Assembly: GCA_963813225.1 (NCBI GenBank)
Contig: CAWEYB010000001.1
Location: 256,362-320,361 of the forward strand
Direction: 5' to 3'
Source of the DNA: an uncultured Chloroflexia bacterium
Lineage (GTDB): Bacteria; Chloroflexota; Limnocylindria; Limnocylindrales; CSP1-4
Length of the DNA: 64,000 nt
A program made the translations under genes and the position numbers. Below the pieces are notes generated by a model. The model saw nothing but the letters and a program-made list of their open reading frames with translations. It made no database searches and had not been told where the DNA came from. This document shows positions 10,460-24,415 of this stretch, in pieces (the stretch's first letter is position 1; each line of letters opens with the position of its first letter).

Positions 10460-12086
10460 CGCGACGCGAGGCGATCGCCTCGGTGGTCGGGATCTTCGCC
10501 GTCGCGTTCGTGGCCCGGGTGCTGTTCGCGTCGCAGATCGTCTTCCCGAAGCCCGAGGACACGGCCTACTACTTCGGCGTCGCGCGCAACCTGGTCGAGG
10601 GCCGCGGCCTCGTCTCGGACGCGCTGTGGAGCTACCAGACCCCGCCGCTCGCGTTCCCGCGGGCCGCGTTCGAGGTGTGGCTGCCGCTCCCGTCGCTGCT
10701 GGCGGCGATCCCGATGGCGCTCTTCGGCGCCACCTTCGCCGCCGCCCAATGGGCGTCGGTCGTGCTCGGGGCCATCGTGCCCGGTCCTCGCCTGGCGGCT
10801 GGCCGCGGACGTCGCCGTGGAACGCGGGCTGCCGACCGGACGCGCCCGGGTGCTGGCCGTCGGCACCGGGCTGACCTGCGCCGTCTACCTGCCGCTGCTC
10901 CTCCATTCCGCCCTGCCCGACTCGACGATGCCGTTCGCGGTCCTCGCCCTCGCGGCCTGCCTGCTGATGGCGCGCATCGCCCGCGAGCCGCGTGGCGGCC
11001 GCCTCGCTCGACCTGCGTGTCGTCGGTCTCGGCGTCCTCATCGGCCTGGCCGCCCTGACCCGCAACGAGGCGATCTACCTCGGCCTGGCCTGGCTCATCG
11101 TCGCGGCCGGCATCGCCGGGCTGGACCGCCGGACGCGGGCCGGGCTCATCGGCGCGGTCGCGGCGGTCGCGCTGCTGGTCTTCCTGCCGTGGGCGATCCG
11201 CGACTGGGCCACCTTCGGCAGCCCGTTCCCGGGGCAGGCGGTCGCCAACGCGTTCTCGATCAGCGGCTTCGACATCTTCGCCTGGAACGATCCGCCGACG
11301 CTGGCCCGCTACCTGGCGGTCGGGCCGGCCCAGCTGATCGACATGCGCGTCGAGGGGCTCAGCCACAACCTGTTCAGCGTCCTGCTGCTGCCGGGTCTGC
11401 CGGTCTCGCTGATCGGCCTCATCGGGCTGCCGTGGGCCATCCGCGGCGGCGCCATCCGGCCGCTGGTCATCGTCAGCTTCGCGACCTTCCTGGTGACCAG
11501 CCTCGTCTTCCCGGTCGCCACGACCTGGGGCACGTTCCTCCACGCCGCCGGCCCGTTCCAGGTCCTGCTGGTCGTGTCGGCACTGCTGGCGCTCGACGCG
11601 CTCATCGCCCGGGTCGGCGTCCGGCTGGGCTGGACCCGACCGGTCGCCTGGCTCGGACCACTGCTCGGGATCTTCGGGTCGCTGCTCTTCTCGGTCGCGC
11701 TGCTGCCGTCGTTCGGGTCGGGCTCGAGCGCCACGGCCGAGCAGTACCGCCAGCTGGCGGCGGCGATGTCGGGCATCGGCCACCCGCTCGACGGCTCGAG
11801 CGGCCCGGTCATCACCAACTTCCCGATCTGGATGGCCGAGACCCAGCGGATCGACTCCCTGGCACTCCCCGACGAGCCGCCGCGGGACGTGCTCGACCTC
11901 GCCTCGACCTTCGGCGCGAAGCTCGTCGTCCTGCTCGACGCCGACAGCACCCACTGGCCGCACGACCTCGACGCCGGCGTCGACGGCAGCACCTGCTTCC
12001 ACGAGCTCGATCTCGCCGCGGCCCCGAGCCGGTCGCCCGGCGACACCCTGAGCGGCGTTCGTGCGTTCGAGGTCGTCTGCCCATGA
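10456..12086 (+). CDS. Second ArnT/PMT-family membrane glycosyltransferase; two frame breaks (about 10780 and 10990)
   Basis: GTGA overlap with the upstream stop. EDTAYYFGVARNLVEGRGL motif. The sequence continues through ORFs 10456-11058, 10817 onward and 10992-12086. Confidence 0.65.
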
Positions 12087-13229
12087 AAGGCGACCCCTAT
12101 ACTCACACTCCGATGGAGCCAGCACGCGCCGGGACCGATGCTCGGGACAGCCGCTTCGACGGACTCCACGCGGAGGCGAAGGCGGCGGTCGGCTACAGCG
12201 CGAACACGCTGCGGAGCGTCCGCGAGCGGTACCGCGAGGCGTACGCCGATTCGCTCGGTCAGTGGCAGGAGCTGCGCGACCAGCTCGACCAGGTCGATCG
12301 TGGACCGGTCGACGGCGGATGGGCGACCGGCACCGCTCCCATCGATCGGGCGGCCGATGCGGCGGAGGCCGGCGCCGACGACGCGCGCCGTCGAAGGCTG
12401 CGCGGGGACGTCGAGACGCTGACCACCGACCTCGGCGACCACCAGGCCGAGCTGGCCAAGCTCGAGCTCGCCGAGCGGACGCTCGAGCGCACCTGGCTGT
12501 TCCTCGAGCGCGGCGATGCGACGCTGCTGACCGATGTCGGCGGACCGACCACCGCCGGCGACGTCCAGATGCGGATCGTCGAGGCGCAGGAGGCCGAGCG
12601 CTCGCGGCTGGCCCAGGAGATCCACGACGGCCCGGCCCAGGCGCTCAGCAACACGATCTTCCAGGTCGAGTACATCGAGAAGGTCATCGATTCGGACCCG
12701 ATGCTCGCCCGCACCGAGCTGCGCTTCCTGCGCGAGCTCCTCCGTCGCGAGCTGGGCGACGTCCGGGCGTTCATCAGCCAGCTCCGACCGCCGATGCTCG
12801 ATCAGCTCGGGCTCGACGGCGCCATCACCGATACCGTCCGAATACATGAGGACGCTGACCGGGATCGACATCGCGCTCGACCTGGCGGCCCCGGCCGACG
12901 TCCTGACCGACGGCCAGCGGACCGTCGCGCTGCGCGTGACGCAGGAGGCCCTGCAGAACGTCCGCAAGCACGCCGCCGCGACCACCGTCTCGGTGACGAC
13001 CCAGCTCGGCGAGGACGACTGCTGGTCGCTCGAGGTCCGCGACGATGGCCGCGGTTTCGACATCGGCGCGGTCGCGGCCCGCGGCCGGCGGAACTTCGGG
13101 CTCCAATTCATGCGCGAGCGTGCCGAGCTGATCGGCGCGCGTTTCGACGTACGATCGCGGCCGGACGGCGGGACCGTCGTCCGCCTGGCGATCCCGACCG
13201 GACCCAGTACGGAAGAGGAGAGCTCATGA
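12083..13229 (+). CDS. Soluble DegS-like (HisKA_3) sensor histidine kinase with an N-terminal coiled coil; one frame break near 12840
   Basis: ATGA overlap at 12083-12086. H-box RSRLAQEIHDGPAQALSN, N-box QEALQNVRKHA, G-boxes VRDDGRGF and GLQFMRERAELIGA. No transmembrane segment. Confidence 0.8.
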
Positions 13230-13972
13230 GTGCGATGGACTACAACGGCCCAGATCGTCGGCGCGGCGGTCCGGACCGTCGCGCCCTCGACGAGGTGACG
13301 AGGATCCTCGTCGTCGACGACCATGCGCTGTTCCGGATGGGGATCGCCAACATCCTCGGGCACGAGTCCGACTTCGAGATCGTGGCCGAGGCCGAGGATT
13401 CGCGCGGCGCCATCGACCGCGCCCTCGAGACGTCGCCCGACATCATCCTGATGGATCTGTCGCTGCCCTCCCCGGGCGGCATCGAGACGACCCAGCGGAT
13501 CAAGCGCGAGCTGCCCTCGACCGGGATCATCGTGCTCGCCCAGACCGAGGACGAGGACGCGCTGTTCGACGCGATCAAGGCGGGCGCCGCCGCGTTCATC
13601 CTCAAGGACGTCGGCCCGGACGACCTGGTGACCATCATCCGTCGGGTGGTCGCGGGCGAGTACCTCATCAACGACAAGGTCTTCTCCAAGCCGGCCGTCG
13701 CCTCGCGCGTCCTCAAGGAGTTCCGCGAGCTGGCGGTCTACGGCCAGGATGCCGCGCCGATCTTCGCGCCGCTCTCCCCGCGCGAGGTCGAGATCCTCGA
13801 CAACATCGCCCAGGGGATGACCAACAAGCAGGTCGCCTACGCGCTGTCGATCAGCGAGCAGACCGTCAAGAACCACATGAGCTCGATCCTCCGCAAGCTG
13901 TCCGTCAACGACCGGACCCAGGCCGTCGTCTACGCGATGCGCCAGGGCTGGATCCGGATGCCGGAAGACTGA
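13226..13972 (+). CDS. NarL/LuxR-family response regulator (REC + HTH_LuxR)
   Basis: ATGA overlap at 13226-13229. ILVVDDH, IILMDLSLP, FILKD; C-terminal LSPREVEILDNIAQGMTNKQVAYALSISEQTVKNHM. Confidence 0.9.
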   Translation: MSAMDYNGPDRRRGGPDRRALDEVTRILVVDDHALFRMGIANILGHESDFEIVAEAEDSRGAIDRALETSPDIILMDLSLPSPGGIETTQRIKRELPSTGIIVLAQTEDEDALFDAIKAGAAAFILKDVGPDDLVTIIRRVVAGEYLINDKVFSKPAVASRVLKEFRELAVYGQDAAPIFAPLSPREVEILDNIAQGMTNKQVAYALSISEQTVKNHMSSILRKLSVNDRTQAVVYAMRQGWIRMPED

Positions 13973-13995: not shown

Positions 13996-15222
13996 ATGAC
14001 CGACATCGCACCCGCAGCCCCGCCACCGGCCACCCTGCCGGAGCTCTCCGGCCGCATGGCCGAGGAGCTGACGCAGCTCGACCGCGAGCTGGTCGAGGTC
14101 GACCTGCTGATCGCCCAGGCCCGCACGGAAGCGACGCGTCACGAAGCGCGCCGTGCATCGGCCGGCGAGAAGCTGACGGCCGCGACGGCATCCGCCACGT
14201 CTGCCGGGACGACGCTCGATCCGACCGTGGCGGCCGACCTCAACGCGCAGCTGGTGCTCCTCACCAAGCGGGCCGCGCTGATGGAGTCGCAGGTCGACGT
14301 CCTCGAAGGCAAGCGGCGCGCGCTGGGCCGCTATCGGGACACGATGGCGGTCTACGCCGAGGCGCTCGAGGGGTTCGGTGACGTCCCGATCCCGCCCGTG
14401 CTGGCCAAGCCGGCTTCCGCCAAGGCACCGGGCCAGCCCGATCCCACAGGTGTCCCGCCGGCGGTCTCGCGCCTCCTTCTCGGCGCGCAGGAGGACCTCC
14501 GCCGCGAGATCGCCCGGGCGATGCACGATGGCCCCGCCCAGAGCCTGACCAACATCGTGCTCCAGGCCCAGATCGTCGAGCGGCTCGTGGAGACCGATCC
14601 GAGCAAGGCCGGCGACGAGGTGCGCCAGCTCGTGGCGATGGTCCAGCAGACGCTCGAGGCGACCAAGTCGTTCATCTTCGACGTCCGGCCGATGGTCCTC
14701 GACGACCTCGGGCTGGTGCCGACGCTGCGTCGCGCGGCGCGCGAGCGCGGTCGGCGGGCGGGCGTCCCGGTCGAGTTCGACTCGTTGGGCCAGGAGCGGC
14801 GGCTGCCGATGGACCTCGAGAGCGGCCTGTTCCGGATCGTCGACGAGGCGATGGCCGCCTACCTGGGCGCCCGAGCCGAGCGCGTGTCGGTCCGGCTCGA
14901 CTGGTCCGAGCAGGTCGAGGCGACCATCTCCGCCTCCCGCAACGCCGCCGAGACGCGTGCCGACGCGACCCCGGACGCCGGCCCGGCCGAGGACCTGCCG
15001 CCGGCCCTGGCGGCGATGATGGAGGACCGCCGCGCGGATGCACGCGACGCGGCCGAGGCAGCCAGGCGCGAGGCGATCGTGGTCCTGCCGCCATCGACCT
15101 GGCGCGAGATCCAGAGCCGGGCGTGGACCCTCGGCCTGACCGCCGAGCTGTCCGCCGACGGCGCACAGCTCCGGCTGGTCGGCGACGTGCCGCCGCTCCA
15201 GACGCCCACCCAGACTGCATGA
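13996..15222 (+). CDS. DegS-like histidine-kinase paralog with an intact H-box but a degenerate ATP-binding domain (pseudo-kinase candidate)
   Basis: Intact 408-aa ORF. H-box REIARAMHDGPAQSLTN is present. The region equivalent to the N/G1/G2 boxes reads RIVDEAMAAYL...ISASRNAAE..., without the conserved Asn, DxGxG or GxGL motifs. Confidence 0.7.
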   Translation: MTDIAPAAPPPATLPELSGRMAEELTQLDRELVEVDLLIAQARTEATRHEARRASAGEKLTAATASATSAGTTLDPTVAADLNAQLVLLTKRAALMESQVDVLEGKRRALGRYRDTMAVYAEALEGFGDVPIPPVLAKPASAKAPGQPDPTGVPPAVSRLLLGAQEDLRREIARAMHDGPAQSLTNIVLQAQIVERLVETDPSKAGDEVRQLVAMVQQTLEATKSFIFDVRPMVLDDLGLVPTLRRAARERGRRAGVPVEFDSLGQERRLPMDLESGLFRIVDEAMAAYLGARAERVSVRLDWSEQVEATISASRNAAETRADATPDAGPAEDLPPALAAMMEDRRADARDAAEAARREAIVVLPPSTWREIQSRAWTLGLTAELSADGAQLRLVGDVPPLQTPTQTA

Positions 15223-15389
15223 CGCGCCCGCGGCTGTCCGCGGTCAGGGGTCAGGGAGTGGTGGAGTACGGGCTCATCCTGGCCCTGACCAGCATCTTCA
15301 CGCTGCTCATCCTGGTGGTCTTCGGCGGGACGCTGGCCGACGTCCTCGGGTTCATCGCCAACGCCATCGATGCGGCGACCGGGGGCTGA
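15219..15389 (+). CDS. Divergent Flp-type prepilin-like peptide (56 aa)
   Basis: The ATG overlaps the kinase-paralog stop (ATGA at 15219-15222). MTRPRLSAVRG/QGVVEYGLILALTSIFTLLILVVF fits the Flp G/XXXXEY motif plus a hydrophobic helix. Confidence 0.6.
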   Translation: MTRPRLSAVRGQGVVEYGLILALTSIFTLLILVVFGGTLADVLGFIANAIDAATGG

Positions 15390-15518
15390 CGGCCCCTCGG
15401 CCCGGTGAGAGTCCGGGGTGACGACCCCGTACCATCAGCCTAGTGTGCCCGCGCCCACTCCCTCCATATAGTGGCCGTGCCCTCAGCCGGGGGTGTCATC
15501 ATCCAGGAGGCACGCTCA

Positions 15519-15701
15519 ATGGCCCTTATCACGGACTTGTATCTCAAGGTCCTCAACGCGTTCGATCGCGATGAGGAAGGCCAGGGACTGGCCGAGTACG
15601 CGCTGATCCTCGCGCTCATCGCCATCGTGGCGATCGTGGCCCTCATCTTCCTGGGCGGCCAGGTCAGCAAGATCCTGAGCCAGGTCGGCAACTCGGTCTA
15701 G
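15519..15701 (+). CDS. flp: Flp pilin paralog A (60 aa; predicted mature peptide 39 aa)
   Basis: AGGAGG lies 8 nt upstream. MALITDLYLKVLNAFDRDEEG/QGLAEYALILALIAIVAIVALIFLGGQVSKILSQVGNSV. Confidence 0.85.
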   Translation: MALITDLYLKVLNAFDRDEEGQGLAEYALILALIAIVAIVALIFLGGQVSKILSQVGNSV

Positions 15702-15725
15702 GCTTCGCACTCGGTAGATCCATGG

Positions 15726-15760
15726 ACCGCCGGTCATCCGACCGGCGGTTCAATCATTTC
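15726..15760 (+). terminator. Rho-independent terminator candidate after flp paralog A
   Basis: accgccggt / accggcggt 9-bp stem with a 6-nt loop, followed by tcaatcatttc. Confidence 0.6.
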
Positions 15761-15808
15761 CGGCTTCTTCTCGCGGTTCGGCCGTGCACCGCAAGCTCCA
15801 AACCCCTC

Positions 15809-15838
15809 TTGACATTAGTCCTACGTCATTCGTACCGT
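15809..15838 (+). promoter_or_regulatory. Promoter candidate for flp paralog B (TTGACA-N18-TACCGT)
   Basis: Perfect -35 at 15809-15814. The -10 at 15833-15838 is weak. A similar architecture sits upstream of paralog C. Confidence 0.35.
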
Positions 15839-15881
15839 CCGTGCTCCGGGGATCCCAAGCAGCTAACGGAGGTCTGATCGA

Positions 15882-16049
15882 ATGACACGCGTCATGGACA
15901 TCCTGAGCTCGCTGCGCCGTGAGGACGGCCAGGGGCTCGCGGAGTACGCACTGATCCTTGCACTCATCGCCATCGTCGCCATCGTCGCCCTCATCTTCCT
16001 GGGCACGCAGGTCAGCCAGATCCTCAGCCAGGTCGGCAACTCGGTCTAG
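15882..16049 (+). CDS. flp: Flp pilin paralog B (55 aa; too short for the ORF track)
   Basis: Read directly from the sequence: ACGGAGG RBS, then MTRVMDILSSLRREDG/QGLAEYALILALIAIVAIVALIFLGTQVSQILSQVGNSV and TAG. Confidence 0.85.
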   Translation: MTRVMDILSSLRREDGQGLAEYALILALIAIVAIVALIFLGTQVSQILSQVGNSV

Positions 16050-16071
16050 GACCGCACGAGCGTGACTTCAA

Positions 16072-16107
16072 AGACCGCCGGCACCTTCGGGGCCGGCGGT
16101 CTTCTCT
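16072..16107 (+). terminator. Rho-independent terminator candidate after flp paralog B
   Basis: agaccgccggc / gccggcggtct 11-bp stem with a 9-nt loop, followed by tctctgtg. Confidence 0.65.
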
Positions 16108-16163
16108 GTGCCGCCTATGTGCCACGCGTCAACGGGTTCGCGGTCATAGGCCCATTCGCCCGC

Positions 16164-16192
16164 TTGACGCGATGGGCTCTTGCCTCTACCTT
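16164..16192 (+). promoter_or_regulatory. Promoter candidate for flp paralog C (TTGACG-N17-TACCTT)
   Basis: -35 at 16164-16169 and -10 at 16187-16192. Confidence 0.35.
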
Positions 16193-16246
16193 GACCCAGC
16201 CCTCGCTCGCCGGGGAGCTTTTTCGGAAAGGAGGTACCTACCACAC

Positions 16247-16420
16247 ATGACTTCGATCTATCTTCGGATCATGAACTTCCTTGATCGGGACGAGGAAGGC
16301 CAGGGTCTCGCCGAATACGCACTGATCCTTGCACTCATCGCCATCGTGGCCATCGTCGCCCTCATCTTCCTGGGCAACCAGGTCAGCAAGATCCTGAGCC
16401 AGGTCGGCAACTCGGTCTAA
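16247..16420 (+). CDS. flp: Flp pilin paralog C (57 aa)
   Basis: AAGGAGG RBS. MTSIYLRIMNFLDRDEEG/QGLAEYALILALIAIVAIVALIFLGNQVSKILSQVGNSV. Confidence 0.85.
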   Translation: MTSIYLRIMNFLDRDEEGQGLAEYALILALIAIVAIVALIFLGNQVSKILSQVGNSV

Positions 16421-16444
16421 CCGGGTCGCTTACCAACTCGATCG

Positions 16445-16484
16445 ACGGCCGTCGGACCTCCGGGTCCGGCGGCCGTTTCTCATT
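16445..16484 (+). terminator. Rho-independent terminator candidate after flp paralog C
   Basis: acggccgtcggacc / ggtccggcggccgt 14-bp stem with one mismatch, followed by ttctcatt. Confidence 0.65.
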
Positions 16485-16603: not shown

Positions 16604-16639
16604 TGGTATAGTCGCGCGGCTCTGGGCCGGTGCTAGAGT
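16604..16639 (+). promoter_or_regulatory. Two tandem extended -10 promoter candidates upstream of cpaB (TGGTATAGT at 16604-16612, TGCTAGAGT at 16631-16639)
   Basis: TGnTAnAGT motifs 70 and 43 nt upstream of the TTG start at 16682. GGGGAGA RBS. Confidence 0.4.
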
Positions 16640-16681: not shown

Positions 16682-17596
16682 TTGAAGCGTTCCAATCGCC
16701 TCGTCCTGCTCGTCGGGGTCTTCCTGGCGATCGTCGCGTTCGTGGGGATCCTGTTGCTCGTCCGGAGCCCAAGCACCGGCCGACAACGGCCAGGCCGTCG
16801 CGCCGACGACGGGCCCCGTCGTCGTCGCGTCGGTGGACATCCCCCTGTCGACGAAGATCAGCGCCGACCAGGTGACGACCAAGACGCTCGATCTGACGCA
16901 GATCCTGCCCGGGCGCCTACACGGACCCGTCCCAGGTCGTCGGCCAGATCGCCCGACAGCCCGTCGCGACGGGCGCTCAGATCACGAGCGCCACGACCGC
17001 CGGCGGCGGTCCCCGGCCAGATCACCAACATCGATTGCCCCGCCACCCTGCGCTGCATGGCGGTCCAGGTGGACCAGGTCAGCGGCGTCGGGACGGTCAT
17101 CAAGACCGGTGACTACGTCGATGCGGTCGTCGGCCTGACGGCGGACAAGTTCCCGGTCACCACGATCAACCCGACCGATAACTCGATCACCGTCGTCGCC
17201 GGCATCAACGGCACGAGCGTCAAGCTCCTGCTCCAGGGCCTGCAGGTCATGGGCACGCTGCTGCCGCCGGTCGCCCCGCCGCCGGAAGGCAGCACGACCG
17301 CCTCGCCGGCCCCGTCCGGCGGACCGAGCACCGCGCTCAATGGCCAGCAGGAGATCGTCGTCCTGGCCGTCAGCGCCCAGCAGTCCGAAGTCCTCAAGTT
17401 CGTCCAGATGGACGGGAGCATCTCGCTCGCGCTCCGATCGCCCAACGACTTCATCGACCCGGCAACGGGAGCCCCGCTCCCGCCGGTCTCGGCCGAGACG
17501 ACGGGCATCATCCTCAAGACCCTGGTCGACTCGTACGGCGTCCTTCCGCCGGAGCTCGTCCAGACCGTGATCCCGACCGCCACCAAGAAGCCATAG
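16682..17596 (+). CDS. cpaB: Flp pilus assembly protein CpaB (N-terminal TM helix, SAF/RcpC-type domains); about 3 frame breaks between 16770 and 17010
   Basis: MKRSNRLVLLVGVFLAIVAFVGILLLV. The SAF-like VDIPLSTKISADQVTTKTLDLTQILPG is in another frame. The C-terminal part GDYVDAVV...EIVVLAVSAQQSEVLKFVQMDGSISLALRSP is in the original frame. Confidence 0.75.
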   Translation: MKRSNRLVLLVGVFLAIVAFVGILLLVRSPSTGRQRPGRRADDGPRRRRVGGHPPVDEDQRRPGDDQDARSDADPARAPTRTRPRSSARSPDSPSRRALRSRAPRPPAAVPGQITNIDCPATLRCMAVQVDQVSGVGTVIKTGDYVDAVVGLTADKFPVTTINPTDNSITVVAGINGTSVKLLLQGLQVMGTLLPPVAPPPEGSTTASPAPSGGPSTALNGQQEIVVLAVSAQQSEVLKFVQMDGSISLALRSPNDFIDPATGAPLPPVSAETTGIILKTLVDSYGVLPPELVQTVIPTATKKP

Positions 17597-17744: not shown

Positions 17745-19007
17745 ATGGCCGACCAGATCCGTGTCCTCGTCGTCGATGACATCCCAGAGACCCGCGACCA
17801 CCTGACGAAGCTGCTCGGTTTCGAGAGCGACATCGACGTGGTCGGCTCGGCGGCGTCCGGGCGCGAGGCCCTCGAGATGGCCACTCGGCTGACGCCGGAC
17901 GTGGTCCTCATGGACATCAACATGCCGGACATGGACGGCATCGCCGCCACCGAGCAGCTGTCCTCGGCGGTCCCCTCCGCGGCCGTCGTGATGATGTCCG
18001 TCCAGGGCGAGGCCGACTACCTGCGCCGCTCGATGCTCGCCGGCGCCCGGGAGTTCCTGGTCAAGCCGTTCAGCAGCGACGAGCTCACCGCCTCGATCCG
18101 ACAGGTCAGTGCCCGTGAGCGCGACAAGCAGAGCCGCATGGCGGTCATGCCGGTCGCATCGGCCAATGGCTCCGGCGGAAGCGTGCGGACGGGTGAGCCG
18201 GGCGAGCCGGGCCTGATCGTCGCCGTGTTCAGCCCCAAGGGCGGGGTCGGGCGGACGACCGTGGCCGTCAACCTGGCCGTCGCCGCCGCCACGGAGCTCG
18301 GCAAGAAGGTCGTCATCATGGACGCCTCGTTCCAGTTCGGTGACGTCGGGGTCCTGCTCAACCTCAACCCCAAGAGCAAGTCCATCGCGGACCTCCTCCC
18401 CGAGCTCGAGACCGGCGAACCGGACTCGCTCGACACGTTCCTGATCAGCCACACGGCCGGCATCCAGGTCCTGCTGGCGCCGCCGTCGCCCGAGACGGCC
18501 GAGATGATCACCGCGTCCGGGGTCAAGAAGATCCTCGACGCGCTGCGCCGGACCCACGACCTGGTGGTCGTCGACTGCACGGCGTTCTTCAACGACACGA
18601 CGCTGGCCGTCCTCGACGCCGCGGACGTGATCCTGACCATGCTCAGCCTCGAGATCACGAGCATCAAGAACATGCGCCTGTTCCTCGAGGTCGCCGACCA
18701 GCTCGGCTACGACCCGGGCAAGGTGCGTCTCGTCCTCAACCGCGCCGACTCGGCGCTCGGGATCCGCGTCGCAGACGTCGAGCACTCGATCGGCCGCAAG
18801 GTCGACGAGACGATCGTCAGCGACGGTCGGAGCGTGGTGTACGCATTCAACCGTGGAGTACCGTTCTTCCTCTCCAATCGGGAGGCACAGGTATCCCAGG
18901 ACATCCTCCGGTTGGCCCGATCCGTCGTCGGCGAAGGGTCCACCACAGCAACCGTCCCGGCCGACCGGAAGTCGGCCCAGAAGAAGTCGCTCTTCGCATG
19001 GCGATGA
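17745..19007 (+). CDS. cpaE: CpaE/TadZ-type ParA/MinD-like ATPase fused to a canonical receiver (REC) domain
   Basis: Intact 420-aa ORF. REC: VLVVDD, VVLMDINMPDMDG, MMSVQG, FLVKPF. ATPase: VFSPKGGVGRTTVAVNLA. Confidence 0.85.
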   Translation: MADQIRVLVVDDIPETRDHLTKLLGFESDIDVVGSAASGREALEMATRLTPDVVLMDINMPDMDGIAATEQLSSAVPSAAVVMMSVQGEADYLRRSMLAGAREFLVKPFSSDELTASIRQVSARERDKQSRMAVMPVASANGSGGSVRTGEPGEPGLIVAVFSPKGGVGRTTVAVNLAVAAATELGKKVVIMDASFQFGDVGVLLNLNPKSKSIADLLPELETGEPDSLDTFLISHTAGIQVLLAPPSPETAEMITASGVKKILDALRRTHDLVVVDCTAFFNDTTLAVLDAADVILTMLSLEITSIKNMRLFLEVADQLGYDPGKVRLVLNRADSALGIRVADVEHSIGRKVDETIVSDGRSVVYAFNRGVPFFLSNREAQVSQDILRLARSVVGEGSTTATVPADRKSAQKKSLFAWR

Positions 19008-19051: not shown

Positions 19052-20468
19052 ATGTCCCTCCTGAAGCGCATCGAGAGCGCTCGACCGGGAGCCAGCGGAG
19101 CACCGGGGCCGGCGCCCACGGCGCCGAGCGGCAACGTGCCGGCCACGCCGGGTGGCGCGCCGCCCAACACTGGCCACGTCGGGCCGGCTGACCAGCCAGG
19201 CGCCCGTGCGGGAATCATTCCGGGACGTCAAGTTCCGCATCCAGAACCGGGTCATCCAGGACCTGGACCCGAAGCTCGACCTGTCGAACCAGGTCGAGGT
19301 CCGGCGCCAGATCGAGGAGATCTTCGGCAAGGTCATCGACGAGGAAGGCCTCGCGCTGACCCGTGCCGAGCGCGTCCGGATGCTCGAGCAGATCACCGAC
19401 GAGATCATCGGCCTCGGGCCGCTCGAGCCGCTGCTCCGTGACGAGTCCATCACCGAGGTCATGGTCAACGGGCCGCGCCAGGTCTACATCGAGCGCTCCG
19501 GCAAGCTCGAGCTGACCAACGTCGTCTTCCAGAACGACGACCACGTCATGCGCATCATCGATCGGATCATCGCCCCGATCGGACGTCGCGTCGACGAGTC
19601 GTCGCCGATGGTCGACGCCCGCCTCACCGACGGTTCCCGCGTCAACGCCATCATCCCGCCGCTGTCATTGGTCGGCCCGGTCATCACCATCCGCAAGTTC
19701 TCGGCGTCGCCGTTCACGGTCGACGACCTCATCCGTTTCGGGACCGCCACCGCAGACATGTTCGACTTCCTTCGAGCATGCGTGGAGGCTCGCCTGAACA
19801 TCTTCGTGTCCGGCGGCACCGGCTCCGGCAAGACCACGACCCTCAACGTCCTGTCGTCGTTCATCCCGAACGACGAGCGGATCGTGACGATCGAGGACGC
19901 CGCCGAGCTCCAGCTCCGGCAGGAGCACGTGGTCACTCTCGAGTCTCGCCCGCCCAACATCGAGGGCAAGGGCGCGATCCCGATCCGCGAGCTCGTCCGC
20001 AACGCCCTGCGCATGCGCCCCGACCGCATCATCGTCGGGGAGTGCCGCTCGGGCGAGGCGCTCGACATGCTCCAGGCCATGAACACGGGCCACGACGGCT
20101 CGATGTCGACCGGCCACGCGAACTCGCCACGCGACATGCTGTCCCGCCTCGAGACGATGGTCCTGATGGCCGGCGTCGACCTGCCCCTGCGGGCCATCCG
20201 CGAGCAGGTCGCATCGGCGGTCGATCTCATCGTCCAGCAGTCACGGCTCAAGGACGGGACCCGCAAGATCGTCAACATCACCGAAGTCCAGGGCATGGAA
20301 GGTGATGTCATCGTCATGCAGGACGTGTTCATCTTCGAGCAGACCGGCGTCGTCGAAGGCAAGATCCAGGGCCGGCTCAAGCCGACCGGGATCCGGCCCA
20401 AGTTCGTCGAGAAGTTCGAGGTGATGGGGATCAATCTCCCACCCGGCCTGTTCGGGTTCACCTACTAG
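19052..20468 (+). CDS. cpaF: Tad secretion ATPase CpaF/TadA; probable frame break about 19150-19185. Alternatively the gene starts at GTG 19152.
   Basis: Walker A GGTGSGKTT, Asp box, Walker B RPDRIIVGECRSGEA and His box TGHDGSMSTGHAN. The N-terminal MSLLKRIESARPG piece lies in a different frame. Confidence 0.9.
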
Positions 20469-20494: not shown

Positions 20495-21509
20495 GTGGAT
20501 ACCATGGCGCTCGCGGTCGCAGGCGTCGCCGCTCTGGCGATCGTCCTGATCGCGATCGGCGTCGCGACTTCCGGCGGAGGAGGCATCTCCGATCGCCTGG
20601 AGCGGTACGCCTGCCAAGCCGACGGAGGTCCAGAAGACCTCCTCGTCGGGTCAGGGTGGCGTGGCCGAGCTGATCGCCCAGAGCGCGACCCTCAACAACC
20701 TCAACCGGGTCGTCGAGCAGCGCGACTTCGGCGCGAACCTCGCGCGCGACATCGCCCGGGCGGACCTCAAGCTCAAGCCATCCGAGTTCCTGCTCATCTG
20801 GGCCGGGTCGGTGGTCGGCATCCCGTTGGCGATGCTGGTCCTCTCCCCGATCCTGCCGGCGCTCGGCAACCCCCTGTTCCTGCTGATCGGCGGGTTCGTC
20901 GGGTTCCTGCTCCCGCGCTTCTGGCTCGGCCGTCGCAAGGCGGGTCGGCTGGGGGCCTTCAACAAGCAGCTTCCTGACACCATCACGCTCATCGCCAACG
21001 CCCTCCGGGCCGGCTCATCGTTCCTGCAGGCCATCGAGCTCGTCGTGCGCGAGTCGCGGCCGCCGATCTCGACCGAGTTCGGGCGCGTCATCCGCGAGGT
21101 CAACCTTGGCCTCCCGTTCGACCAGGCGCTCGAGAACATGGTCCGGCGGGTGCGCTCCGACGACCTCGAGCTGATGGCCACCGCGATCAGCATCCAGCAC
21201 CAGGTCGGCGGCAACCTCGCCGAGATCCTCGACTCGATCGCGTACACCATCCGCGAGCGCATCCGGATCCAGGGCGAGATCCGGACCCTGACGGCGCAGC
21301 AGCGCCTGTCCGGCTACGTCGTCGGGTTCCTGCCGATCGGCCTGGCGGGCTTCCTGTTCATCGCCGCACCCGGCTTCATGAAGCCGATGTTCGACAATCC
21401 GCCGGAGATCCTCGGTCTCCCGGCGGGCGTGGTCATCCTGATCTTCGGCGGTTTCATGATGTTCATGGGCTTCATGTTCATCCGCAAGATCGTCGACATC
21501 GAGGTCTAG
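20495..21509 (+). CDS. tadB: Tad pilus platform protein TadB (T2SSF family); one frame break near 20612
   Basis: N-terminal TM piece MDTMALAVAGVAALAIVLIAIG..DRLERYA, then ORF 20661-21509 with LPDTITLIANALRAGSSFLQAIE and C-terminal transmembrane helices. Confidence 0.85.
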
Positions 21510-21512
21510 ACG

Positions 21513-22450
21513 ATGCCCATCCTTGCGATCGTCGTCGCTGCCCTCGCGGCCGGCGCCATCCTGCTCATCGTCATCGGGCTTGCCGGCATCATCGCCGGTG
21601 GACCCCGTCCAGGCTCGGCTGACCCAGCTCGGGTCGATGCAGGCCAAGAACCTCGAGGAGCTCGAGCTCCAGCAGCCGTTCATCGAGCGGACGCTGCGCC
21701 CGCTGGCGAACCGGCTGTCCGGGCAGCGTCGCGCGCGTCACCAGCTCGTCCTTCAGCGAACGGACCGAGAAGCGGCTCGCGCTGGCCGGCAACCCCGGCG
21801 ACCTCCGCGTCGCCGACTGGCTCGGCATCAAGGCGATCGGCGCGATCGTCGGCGCGATCCTGTTCTTCTTCCTGTTCGGGATCGTCGGCCTCATCGGGCT
21901 CCCGTTCGTCATCGGCGGCATCCTCATGCCGCTGGTCGGCGCGCTGTTCGGCTACACGGCTCCGGAATTCTGGCTCGGCCGCCGGGTCAAGAAGCGCCAG
22001 AAGGCGATCCTGCTGATGATCCCGGACGCGCTGGACCTGCTGACCATCTCCGTGCGTGCCGGCCTCGGCTTCGACGCCGCGCTGGGCAAGGTCGTCGAGA
22101 AGCTGCAGGGCCCGCTGTCCGACGAGTTCCGCCGGGCGCTGGCCGAGGTTCGGGTCGGCAAGGCGCGCCGCGACGCGCTGCGCGACATCGTGCCGCGGAC
22201 CGAGGTCGTGCCGCTGACCAACTTCATCGGCGCGATCATCCAGGCCGAGCAGCTGGGCGTGTCGATCTCCAAGGTGCTGCAGGTCCAGTCCGAGCAGCTC
22301 CGCATCGAGCGCCGCCAGCGCGCCGAGGAACAGGCGGCCAAGGCGCCGATCAAGATGCTGTTCCCGCTGGTCGGCTGCATCTTCCCGTCGCTGTTCATCG
22401 TCATCCTCGGGCCGGCGATCATCCTCATCGTCGAGAACCTCAAGGTCTAG
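21513..22450 (+). CDS. tadC: Tad pilus platform protein TadC (T2SSF family); two frame breaks (about 21600 and 21730)
   Basis: MPILAIVVAALAAGAILLIVIGLAG, then VQARLTQLGS...FIERTLRPLANRLSG, then ...IPDALDLLTISVRAGLGFDAALGKV..IIQAEQLGVSISKVL. Confidence 0.85.
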
Positions 22451-22474: not shown

Positions 22475-22868
22475 ATGACCGCGCCGCTGCGCGCCCGCAA
22501 TCTCGACCGCCAGACCGAGCTGGCCACGCGGCTCGAGGTCGCCGATGGCCTATGGAGCCGAGTTCATGGGCCTGATGGGCCGTCCCACCCTGGAGCCGGA
22601 CACCGGGCTGTGGCTGACCGGGACGAACGGCATCCACATGATGTTCATGCGCTTCGCGATCGATGCCGTGTTCCTCGCCAAGCCGGACCAGGCGGGCGAC
22701 GAGGCGCGCGCCGTCCTCTCGGTCCACCGCGGACTGCGTGCCTGGACCGGTCTCGTGCCGCTGGTCCGTGGCGCCAACGGCGTCCTCGAGCTGCCGGTCG
22801 GGACCATCGAACGCAGCGGCACGGCCGTCGGCGACCGGATCGCGCTGGAGCCTGCCACAGCCGGCTGA
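22475..22868 (+). CDS. DUF192 family protein; one frame break near 22555
   Basis: RLEVADGLWSR.., then GLMGRPTLEPDTGLWLTGTNGIHMMFMRFAIDAVFL. This matches the DUF192 pattern (R.GLMgR...iH..fM.f.iDv.f). Confidence 0.6.
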
Positions 22869-22910
22869 AGTGAGCCGCGGTGAAGCGGCGCCGGCCATCA
22901 TCGACACGCG

Positions 22911-23605
22911 ATGGCGGCCATCCGGCGGCTGACGGCCGCGACCCTCGATCTCGCCTTTCCGGCGCTCTGCTCGGGCTGTGGCCGGGAGGGCCCGCCCCTC
23001 TGTCCCGACTGCCTGCCCGAGCTCGACGCCCGTCTCGGGTTGCCGGGCGGCACGCCGCTCGGGCTGCCCGCCGATATCCCGGCGCCACTCCTGCAGCTCG
23101 ACTGGTGCGCGCCGTTCGCGGGCGCCGTCCGACACGGGCTCCACGACCTCAAGTACAAGGGCGAGCGCCGCCTGGCCGAACCGTTCGGGGCGGCCGTCGC
23201 GCGACGGTGGGCGCGGGTCGGATCGGGCGCCCAGGTCGCTCGTGCCCGTCCCCGTCCACGCGGACCGGGAGCGGCAGCGCGGCTACGATCAGGCGGCCCT
23301 GATCGCGGAGGTGGCGGCCCGCGACCTCGGTCTGCCCGTCGGTCCGCGCGCTCGTCCGCCGGCGGGCGACGATCGCCCAGTTCGAGCTCGGCCGCCACGA
23401 GCGCGAGGCCAATGTCGCGGGTGCGTTCGAGGCTCGGGCCGGGCGGGAGGACGGTCGCGGGCCCGGGGCGACTGTGGTCGGTCGCTGGGTGCTGCTGGTC
23501 GACGATGTGGTCACCACCGGGGCGACGCTGGCGGCCTGCGCGACCGCGCTCCGTCGTGCCGGTGCCGTCGCTGTCAGTGCGATCGCGGTCGCCCGGGAGC
23601 GATGA
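22911..23605 (+). CDS. comFC: ComF-family protein (ComFC-like phosphoribosyltransferase-fold, N-terminal Zn finger); 2 frame breaks
   Basis: FPALCSGCGREGPPLCPDC, LVPVPVHADRERQRGYDQAALIA and VLLVDDVVTTGATLAACATALRRAGA in three frames. The stop is at 23603-23605. Confidence 0.7.
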
Positions 23606-23722
23606 TCTCCGGAGGAGGCGGGCCGGGGAGGCGGCGTATACTCGGTCGCAGGCGGTCCACGACGCGACACTCGCACCGCCGCGGCGGGACCAGAACGGGC
23701 GACCAAGGCCCGGGGGGTTCGC

Positions 23723-24415
23723 TTGAGGACGATCGTCAAGGGCAAGAATGCCGAGGTCCCGGAGCGTGTTCGCGAGTACGCGGAACGCAAGCTCAAACGG
23801 ATCGACCGGCTGCTCGACGATCAGACCGATGCCACGGTCGAGCTCTGGAGCGAGCACCACAAGAGCGCCGCGACCTCGCACGTCGCCGAGCTGACGCTGA
23901 TCGTCCACGGCCAGGCCCTGCGCAGCCGCGCGACCGGCACGAGCTACCAGGAGGCGCTCGACGACGTCGTCGACAAGGCGGAGCGCATCGCGGTCGGCTA
24001 CAAGGAGAAGCCGCGGTTGCGCGCCCGGCCCGAGGAGGAGAAGCAGATCCTCCGTCGTCTCGCCGACGGCTCGGCCGGCCCTGGCCGCGAACCGCGCATC
24101 GTCAAGGTCAAGCGCTTCGCCATCGAGCCGATGTTCGAGGAGGACGCGGTCGCGGCGATGGAGGAGCTGGGCCACCAGTTCTTCGTCTTCGTGAACGCCG
24201 AGACCGAACGGGTCGCCATCCTCTACAAGCGCCAGGACGGCGACTTCGGCCTCATCGAACCAGCCATCGGCGGCGACTACACAAAGGGCCGCCCCCGAGC
24301 CTCCGACCCCCCACAAAAGCCGCCTCCGCCCGTTCCTGACACTCGAACTCGACAGCGGGCGTCGGCTCGTGGTCGTCGGACGCACCGACGCCGGCGCGGC
24401 AGGCGCTTCCGTTAG
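23723..24415 (+). CDS. hpf: Ribosome hibernation promoting factor, long form (TTG start). The last 50 or so Arg/Pro-rich codons may be read-through.
   Basis: N-terminal domain IVKGKNAEVPERVREYAERKL...; C-terminal dimerisation domain IVKVKRFAIEPMFEEDAVAAMEELGHQFFVFVNAETERVAILYKRQDGDFGLIEP. Confidence 0.8.
   Translation: MRTIVKGKNAEVPERVREYAERKLKRIDRLLDDQTDATVELWSEHHKSAATSHVAELTLIVHGQALRSRATGTSYQEALDDVVDKAERIAVGYKEKPRLRARPEEEKQILRRLADGSAGPGREPRIVKVKRFAIEPMFEEDAVAAMEELGHQFFVFVNAETERVAILYKRQDGDFGLIEPAIGGDYTKGRPRASDPPQKPPPPVPDTRTRQRASARGRRTHRRRRGRRFR

Follow-up and report, generated by a model that had tools for sequence, protein, structure and literature searches.

In Aggregatibacter actinomycetemcomitans, the pilin genes flp-1 and flp-2 reportedly stand at the head of the flp-tad operon, and termination after the pilin gene is said to have been described. 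Caulobacter crescentus has a single pilA gene. Concerted evolution by gene conversion is known for duplicated bacterial genes, for example, tufA/tufB and duplicated flagellin genes, and in the pilE/pilS system of Neisseria, conversion from silent cassettes diversifies the exposed part of the type IVa pilin. Tandem genes, flp1 to flp3, are found at the head of the flp-tad locus of Haemophilus ducreyi (PMC3201912). The flp1 to flp3 genes of Bdellovibrio bacteriovorus are reported to be differentially regulated type IVb pilin genes (PMC5430801), and other Chloroflexota are reported to have tad genes (PMC7332563). The subject of this study is an array of such genes, flpA, flpB, and flpC, in a 64-kb stretch of a soil Limnocylindrales (Chloroflexota) genome, hereafter called the window. 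As in H. ducreyi, tandem Flp prepilin genes with the G↓xxxxEY site (the arrow marks the cleavage) lie here directly 5′ of rcpC/cpaB-tadZABC (PMC3201912). The three mature pilins are nearly identical, and comparison with related loci reveals that the DNA of the mature part follows a pattern of concerted evolution that the leaders do not share. Taken as a whole, the explanation developed below, in which the region is a pilin-gene array heading a Tad (Flp, type IVb) pilus locus, is considered probable.

The prepilin genes of the array

The genes of the window are arranged in the order flpX, flpA, flpB, flpC, cpaB, REC-tadZ, tadA, tadB, and tadC. All the array genes, as well as the tad genes and the signals for which positions are given below, lie on the + strand. 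The flpA gene (15519–15701) encodes 60 amino acids (aa), a 21-aa leader, MALITDLYLKVLNAFDRDEEG (15519–15581), and a 39-aa mature peptide (15582–15698). The flpB gene (15882–16049) encodes 55 aa with a 16-aa leader, MTRVMDILSSLRREDG (15882–15929), before the mature part (15930–16046), and flpC (16247–16420) encodes 57 aa with an 18-aa leader, MTSIYLRIMNFLDRDEEG (16247–16300), before the mature part (16301–16417). The C-terminal 39 residues of the three proteins read QGLAEYALILALIAIVAIVALIFLG[G/T/N]QVS[K/Q/K]ILSQVGNSV, with variation only at residues 26 (G/T/N) and 30 (K/Q/K). Thus, the three tandem Flp open reading frames (ORFs) and the 39-aa mature peptides with two variable positions, which an original prediction made from this DNA had described, are exactly reproduced. 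Identity between the copies is 78–86% over 161 nt.

The Flp/Fap processing site G↓xxxxEY, in which Glu and Tyr occupy mature positions +5 and +6, is present in FlpA, FlpB, FlpC, and the more divergent FlpX: the motif is EEG↓QGLAEY in A and C, EDG↓QGLAEY in B, and VRG↓QGVVEY in FlpX. A hydrophobic helix comes after the motif in all four; in the 39-aa mature peptide it is ALILALIAIVAIVALIFLG, directly after EY. The four pilins match Pfam Flp_Fap (PF04964) with E-values of 9e-6 to 4e-5, and close homologues bear a precomputed PF04964 assignment. A sequence database search yielded about 8,000 relatives, of which the named ones are entered as “Flp family type IVb pilin” from Candidatus Limnocylindria/Limnocylindrales, Chloroflexota, and over 100 database clusters have the leader type of FlpA. 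Among solved structures, the Tad pilins 8u1k and 8u2b, of 45 residues, are closest. From these features, FlpA, FlpB, and FlpC are assigned as Flp (Tad, type IVb) prepilins, and the identity first proposed for them holds in the G↓QGLAEY motif and in the tad genes downstream.

Concerted mature segments and class-specific leaders

Related loci were obtained by a scan of species-representative genomes. The 80 loci are all from Chloroflexota, mostly Limnocylindrales, and many come from long-read assemblies. They contain 144 core copies, that is, copies with the 39-aa mature peptide starting with QGLAEYALIL, and some of the loci are truncated by contig ends. Copy number, whose variation between related genomes had been named as a point to check, does vary: 37 loci have one core copy, 26 have two, 13 have three, and four have four.

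Purifying selection on the mature peptide is evident at the codon level. Mature codons of A and C differ at eight synonymous and one nonsynonymous positions, and those of B and C at five and two, respectively, exactly as counted before, with a different stop codon in both pairs; A and B differ at 10 synonymous and two nonsynonymous codons. Omega (dN/dS) by NG86 is 0.08–0.15 among the window paralogs and about 0.13 among orthologues, and most of the 39 mature positions are invariant or nearly so over the 144 copies, where positions 1–10 carry no weight because they were fixed by the selection filter. The dN/dS test suggested earlier therefore agrees with the purifying selection that had been claimed. 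Positions 26 and 30, the variable ones in the window, are among the four most variable of the family. A comparison of dS between leader and mature parts within gene pairs is not relied on: NG86 overstates the synonymous sites of the mature part, since Ile is nearly a one-codon residue (ATC at least 96%) and the mature part is rich in Ile, Leu, and Ala, and only some 10 synonymous sites are available in the leaders.

The mature DNA is more similar within loci than between them. The median p-distance is 0.068 within loci vs. 0.188 between loci. Of 107 copies, 76 have their nearest neighbor by mature DNA within their own locus, where permuted labels give an expectation of 1.4; by leader DNA, only 24 do. 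The same opposition appears in quartets formed from the six genomes that have both an A-type and a C-type leader (the window, L001, L002, L003, L030, and L045; 15 genome pairs). For the mature part, the topology with paralogs together is favored in 15 of 15 quartets, which have genomes in common and hence are not independent tests; for the leader, the topology with orthologues together is favored in 13 of 15. Parsimony-informative sites summed over the 15 quartets are 98 concerted, eight orthology, and one cross in the mature part, and 20 concerted, 91 orthology, and five cross in the leader. When the count is restricted to synonymous sites, in codons whose residue is shared by the four sequences, 14 of 15 mature quartets are still concerted. 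Codon usage of the neighboring genes is near-identical across the six genomes, so the pattern is not due to genome-specific codon bias.

The homogenized segment has sharp borders. About 10 nt 5′ of the cleavage site, identity between paralogs climbs from about 0.4–0.5 to more than 0.8, and at the stop codon it is back to about 0.4. Within this segment, residue 34 is Gln (CAG) in all three window copies and Thr (ACC/ACG) in the other five genomes, a two-nucleotide change, and Gln34 is found in only six of the 144 copies. Furthermore, all eight synonymous differences between A and C fall in nt 1–57 of the 117-nt mature region, while nt 58–117 are the same except for codon 26. This 3′ half looks like a conversion tract, on a small sample and by inspection rather than by a formal GENECONV-type tract test.

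The leaders behave differently. Aligned from the cleavage site, leaders A and C share 10 of 18 residues, while leader B is strongly divergent, sharing three of 16 residues with A; its nearest relative in leader DNA is at a distance of 0.38, and none is close. Each leader type recurs in other genomes. The description of the leaders as unrelated was thus overstated. An MA(L)-type start is found in 31 of 42 first copies of multi-copy loci vs. four of 64 later copies. In the other five genomes of the quartets, the cpaB-tadZ DNA is 75–85% identical to that of the window, which indicates that the split between A and C is old. Since A-type and C-type orthologues occur in genomes of this divergence and the MA(L) start keeps to one position, the leader classes are position-specific and older than the compared genomes, and so are the promoter types (see below). 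Leader omega is 0.24 among A-type orthologues and 0.54 among C-type ones. By sequence, the leaders are diverged members of classes conserved between genomes.

The simplest reading is that recurrent gene conversion, together with occasional duplication or loss of whole cassettes, acts on top of strong purifying selection. The original prediction had taken the synonymous differences to point to long-term purifying selection rather than a recent duplication or gene conversion. Ancient paralogs kept alike by selection on the mature peptide alone would fit the low omega, the 5–10 synonymous codons at which the window paralogs differ, and the near-invariance of the mature peptide across the order. 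They would also fit the comparison with the related contig L083, in which, at 3.5% divergence, each window cassette is nearest to its own orthologue with 2–3 substitutions per mature region. (An attempt to recognize micro-conversions by eye among these differences was uninformative, third positions being nearly two-state.) However, selection at the protein level cannot render synonymous sites and rare residues genome-specific. The 98 against eight informative sites and the 14 synonymous quartets, with the leaders showing the opposite, the Gln34 that needs two nucleotide changes and yet occurs in all three copies, and the confinement of synonymous A–C differences to the first 57 nt all argue against selection alone, as does the codon usage shared by the six genomes, and this account is improbable. 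From the earlier statement, it stands that the last homogenization was not very recent; the exclusion of conversion fails on the site counts and on the 15 concerted quartets. Besides the shared genomes of the quartets, two points weigh against conversion in the window itself: its signal is the weakest of the six genomes, with an A–C mature distance of 0.085 vs. 0.017–0.060 elsewhere, and its quartet with L003 is tied, and that with L045 nearly tied, on synonymous sites.

Another reading is a recent tandem duplication in the window lineage, followed by very fast divergence of leaders and intergenic DNA. Recent whole-cassette duplicates with near-identical leaders do exist in some relatives (for example, copies 2 and 3 of L002, L006, and L064), as does a copy number ranging from 1 to 4. 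But such an event is very unlikely in view of the clear orthologues of the A-type and C-type leaders in genomes with only 75–85% identity in cpaB-tadZ, the position bias of the MA(L)-type leader (31 of 42 first vs. four of 64 later copies), and the 91 leader sites of the orthology type. A repeat collapsed or expanded in assembly, which had been named as a possible refutation, is extremely improbable and not borne out. Copies with 78–86% identity over 161 nt are similar enough to confuse short-read assemblers, and breaks in the frame of tadC (see below) may mean that the window holds indel errors. Against this, flpX-A-B-C-cpaB stand in the same order on a 43.7-kb contig assembled independently from a different sample (L081/L083), which over about 6 kb shares 96.5% identity with the window; there, FlpA and FlpC are identical proteins and FlpB is one residue off (T26A). 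Cassette C is also spanned by a short-read contig, L082, 98.6% identical, with an identical FlpC. Furthermore, multi-copy arrays occur in dozens of long-read genomes, and each copy of the window is anchored by its unique leader and spacers. In an exact-sequence look-up, FlpA and FlpC were found on record, and FlpB of the window was not.

Putative expression signals and the Tad locus

A Shine-Dalgarno (SD) site precedes each cassette, AGGAGG at 15505–15510 for A, GGAGG at 15868–15872 for B, and AGGAGG at 16229–16234 for C, in agreement with the ribosome binding site proposed for each of them. Each is followed by a GC-rich hairpin: at 15723–15752 after flpA (13-bp stem; dG −31.3 kcal/mol, z −5.35), at 16071–16103 after flpB (dG −35.2 kcal/mol, z −3.5), and at 16444–16477 after flpC (15-bp stem; dG −38.5 kcal/mol, z −4.3), the last being followed by TTCTCATT; z-scores are against dinucleotide shuffles. 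A hairpin with dG of −20 kcal/mol or lower follows 96% of 141 core copies, and the best 44-nt stretch has a mean of −29.9 vs. −19.2 kcal/mol in shuffled sequences. These hairpins would be either terminators or RNA-stabilizing stem-loops.

The promoter-like TTGAC(A/G)-N17/18-TACC(G/T)T boxes described before B and C are found in place. That of flpB is composed of TTGACA (15809–15814), an 18-nt spacer, and TACCGT (15833–15838), and that of flpC of TTGACG (16164–16169), a 17-nt spacer, and TACCTT (16187–16192). The −35 boxes match TTGACA at six and five of six positions, respectively, and the spacers compare with a consensus of 16–18 nt. The motif class is conserved in relatives: 48 of 143 core copies have TTGACN-N16–19-TANNNT upstream at a near-fixed distance, compared with 0.003 per copy in shuffled sequences, and 42 of these 48 are second or later copies. 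Between the box of flpC and its SD site lies a small 5′ untranslated region (UTR) hairpin at 16201–16215. The single terminator-like site returned by a generic consensus scan is in reality this hairpin; since such a scan is too strict for a GC-rich genome, conservation across genomes was used instead.

The region upstream of flpA (15429–15518), whose elements align in 19 loci, is of another kind. It contains GTACCATC (15429–15436), CTAGTG (15440–15445), a TATAGT box (15467–15472), a stem-loop (15479–15494), and the SD site, and the consensus for first copies in the 19 loci is GTACCATC, (C/T)TAGTG, a TATAGTGG box, a small stem-loop, GAGTACTCATC, and CAGGAGG. Its dissimilarity to the TTGACA-type boxes of later copies suggests a separately regulated promoter and 5′UTR. 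The 6-bp stem in the 5′UTR is kept in 15 sequences with little covariation; a single pair with a double change is insufficient for claiming a structured RNA element, and that claim was dropped. A palindrome, GAGTACTC, lies between this stem-loop and the SD site. With gathering thresholds, no Rfam family was matched anywhere in the window, and hence no known riboswitch or leader RNA in the spacers.

Two further types of pilin gene are found at these loci. The flpX gene (15216–15389; MTRPRLSAVRG↓QGVVEYGLIL...AIDAATGG; Pfam Flp_Fap E 3.7e-5) was missing from the original prediction, and its type is present in 26 loci of the 81 that result when the window is added to the 80 related ones. Its start overlaps the 3′ end of an upstream HisKA_3 gene by 7 nt, and there is no significant hairpin downstream of it (z −1.3 vs. 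shuffles). FlpX may be a minor pilin or have another role. In 18 of 81 loci, the last Flp paralog is of a distinct type (mature ...LGSQISDKLSVIG..., in some cases extended at the C-terminus, e.g., ...DSVTP); it occurs in L003 (5386–5598), L011 (4721–4912), L015 (4740–4934), L077 (3986–4180), and others, and is absent from the window.

Downstream of the array, the genes for the Tad machinery follow. A cpaB/rcpC-type Flp pilus assembly gene (16682–17596) matches Pfam RcpC (3.4e-11) and TIGR03177 (3.4e-11, under its cut-off); a TATAGT box like that upstream of flpA is located at 16607–16612, about 70 nt 5′ of its start, and may be a separate promoter of the machinery genes. The next gene (17745–19007) encodes a TadZ/CpaE-type ParA-like ATPase (Pfam AAA_31, 8.6e-14) with a full receiver domain at its N-terminus (Response_reg, 1.7e-28), which hints at phosphorelay control of pilus assembly. 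It is followed by genes for the secretion ATPase TadA/CpaF (19152–20468; Pfam T2SSE, 1.2e-65; TIGR03819, 9e-104) and the T2SSF platform protein TadB (20661–21509; Pfam T2SSF, 1.2e-20). The last one, a tadC-like platform gene (21513–22450), was recognized by three-frame translation; its frame is apparently broken twice in the first third, and it is readable only with two frame changes, near 21600 and near 21730. These breaks are either assembly indel errors or signs of a pseudogene. A kinase gene upstream of the array is also split in two on the related contig L083, which makes long-read indel errors plausible in this kind of data.

On the 5′ side of the array, a 1051-aa ORF (10817–13972) contains HisKA_3, receiver, and LuxR-type HTH domains, and a second HisKA_3 protein of 408 aa (13996–15222), in which no ATPase domain was detected, is encoded directly upstream of flpX; the two genes are candidate regulators of the pilin array. 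On the 3′ side (22545–24415), inspection of the translations by eye suggests a DUF192-like small ORF and then genes resembling ComF and a ribosome hibernation factor, which indicates that the tad locus stops at tadC and has no tadV or tadE/F attached.

A working model and known systems

The model that accommodates these features is as follows. The flpA, flpB, and flpC genes would be separate transcription units, each with a promoter-like region, an SD site, and a downstream GC hairpin. A TadV-type prepilin peptidase would cleave the products at G↓QGLAEY, yielding one 39-residue major pilin, the same but for residues 26 and 30, to be handed to the CpaB-TadZABC machinery. The hairpins may end transcription or stabilize short pilin mRNAs and so provide pilin in excess of the machinery. 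The most likely effect of the array is a larger and more varied supply of major subunit compared with that of the assembly machinery. The promoter types differ, flpA having a conserved region of its own and flpB and flpC sigma-70-like TTGACA/TAnnnT boxes, and this would allow the same product to be regulated in different ways, with the nearby two-component genes and the receiver domain of TadZ as candidate inputs. Very strong purifying selection on the filament-forming helix would keep the mature segments alike, and recurrent conversion between tandem copies would homogenize the segment from about 10 nt before the cleavage site to the stop codon. Leaders and flanks, being outside of this segment, would keep older class-specific sequences. 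In this model, the anatomy of the genes, their family, the conserved architecture, and the concerted pattern are observed, while transcription units, cleavage, and a purpose in dosage or regulation are inferred from the DNA.

Several observations weigh against this explanation. The PF04964 scores, 23.9–25.9 bits, fall below the gathering cut-off of 32.2, and no pilin model was matched in an NCBIfam search; the low Pfam score is attributed to the shortness of the sequences, in which the other defining features are found. The apparent frame shifts in tadC mean that the machinery might be defective in the window genome, or that the assembly has indel errors. A simple motif scan of the 64-kb window detected no TadV/CpaA peptidase and no TadE/TadF pseudopilin genes; for TadV/CpaA, the scan looked for a GxGDxKL-type motif in the six-frame translations. 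The hairpins are without clear U-tracts, with a mean of 2.6 T in the next 10 nt over the 141 core copies, and the generic scan called none of the three a terminator and found no sigma-70 promoter. Of the strong GC hairpin and terminator claimed for each cassette, the hairpins stand with significant z-scores, and the putative terminators have weak U-tracts and no call by the scan. The −10 boxes fit the TATAAT consensus as TAnnnT only.

There is a reading in which the leaders have roles of their own. The three leaders may have distinct functions (processing rates, timing, or partners), so that one pilin is made via three different precursors rather than for simple dosage. The gene would then consist of two modules, a leader of a class with its own role (processing kinetics, timing, or an active released peptide) and an interchangeable mature segment maintained by conversion, the start of the homogenized segment being held near the peptidase cleavage site by selection. 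The conservation of leader classes between genomes, their tie to array position, and the omega below 1 (0.24) of A-type orthologue leaders favor such roles. The promoter types of flpA vs. flpB and flpC point to different regulation and are silent on the leader peptides themselves. In the other direction, omega of 0.54 for the C-type and a B leader without close relative (0.38) fit weak constraint, and the conservation may partly reflect translation-initiation signals or shared ancestry. Distinct leader functions are thus doubtful, and the two-module gene with its selected border, taken together, is equally so. If true, the array would supply a single filament subunit by three entry routes under different control, which is not mere dosage.

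Whichever role the leaders have, the locus documents a Tad pilus of Limnocylindrales, an order represented in this dataset by metagenome-assembled genomes only, many of them from soil and freshwater samples. Its major pilin comes from an array of variable number, 1–4 copies, with a mature part almost frozen in sequence. The array offers a clean small example of segmental concerted evolution and a caution that gene conversion is not excluded by synonymous differences counted between paralogs of one genome. As tags, the unique leaders and spacers could also tell, in metatranscriptomes or proteomes, which copy is expressed. Literature searches yielded no paper that links gene conversion with Flp pilins, nor any that deals with pili of Limnocylindria.

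In comparison with known systems, this is otherwise an ordinary Flp/Tad locus: tandem flp genes at the heads of tad loci are already well known, and segmental concerted evolution is a tidy but unsurprising twist. The array resembles those of H. ducreyi and A. actinomycetemcomitans in that pilin would here, too, be expressed in excess over the machinery. It differs from them in the near-identical mature parts with differing leaders, in a promoter-like box and a hairpin for each copy, in the Chloroflexota host, and in that no secretin or TadV gene is found in the locus. With the flp1 to flp3 genes of B. bacteriovorus, it has in common several Flp pilin genes in one genome (PMC5430801). The mature peptides are near-identical here, so any difference between the copies would lie in regulation or leader and not in the filament subunit. 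The Tad pilin PilA of C. crescentus and a related Flp pilin (PDB 8u1k, 8u2b, and 8ucr) are likewise single-helix pilins and align from E5–Y6 to the C-terminus, although they have 45 mature residues instead of 39 and the sequence match is weak (E 0.03–0.08). As in tufA/tufB and the flagellins, a gene resembles its paralogs in the same genome more than its orthologues, and orthology is retained in the flanks. Here, however, the homogenized segment is only about 130 nt and has its start about 10 nt 5′ of a proteolytic cleavage site. Conversion between pilin copies is a likeness to the pilE/pilS system of Neisseria as well; the difference is that, in the Limnocylindrales array, it is apparently expressed copies that are homogenized.

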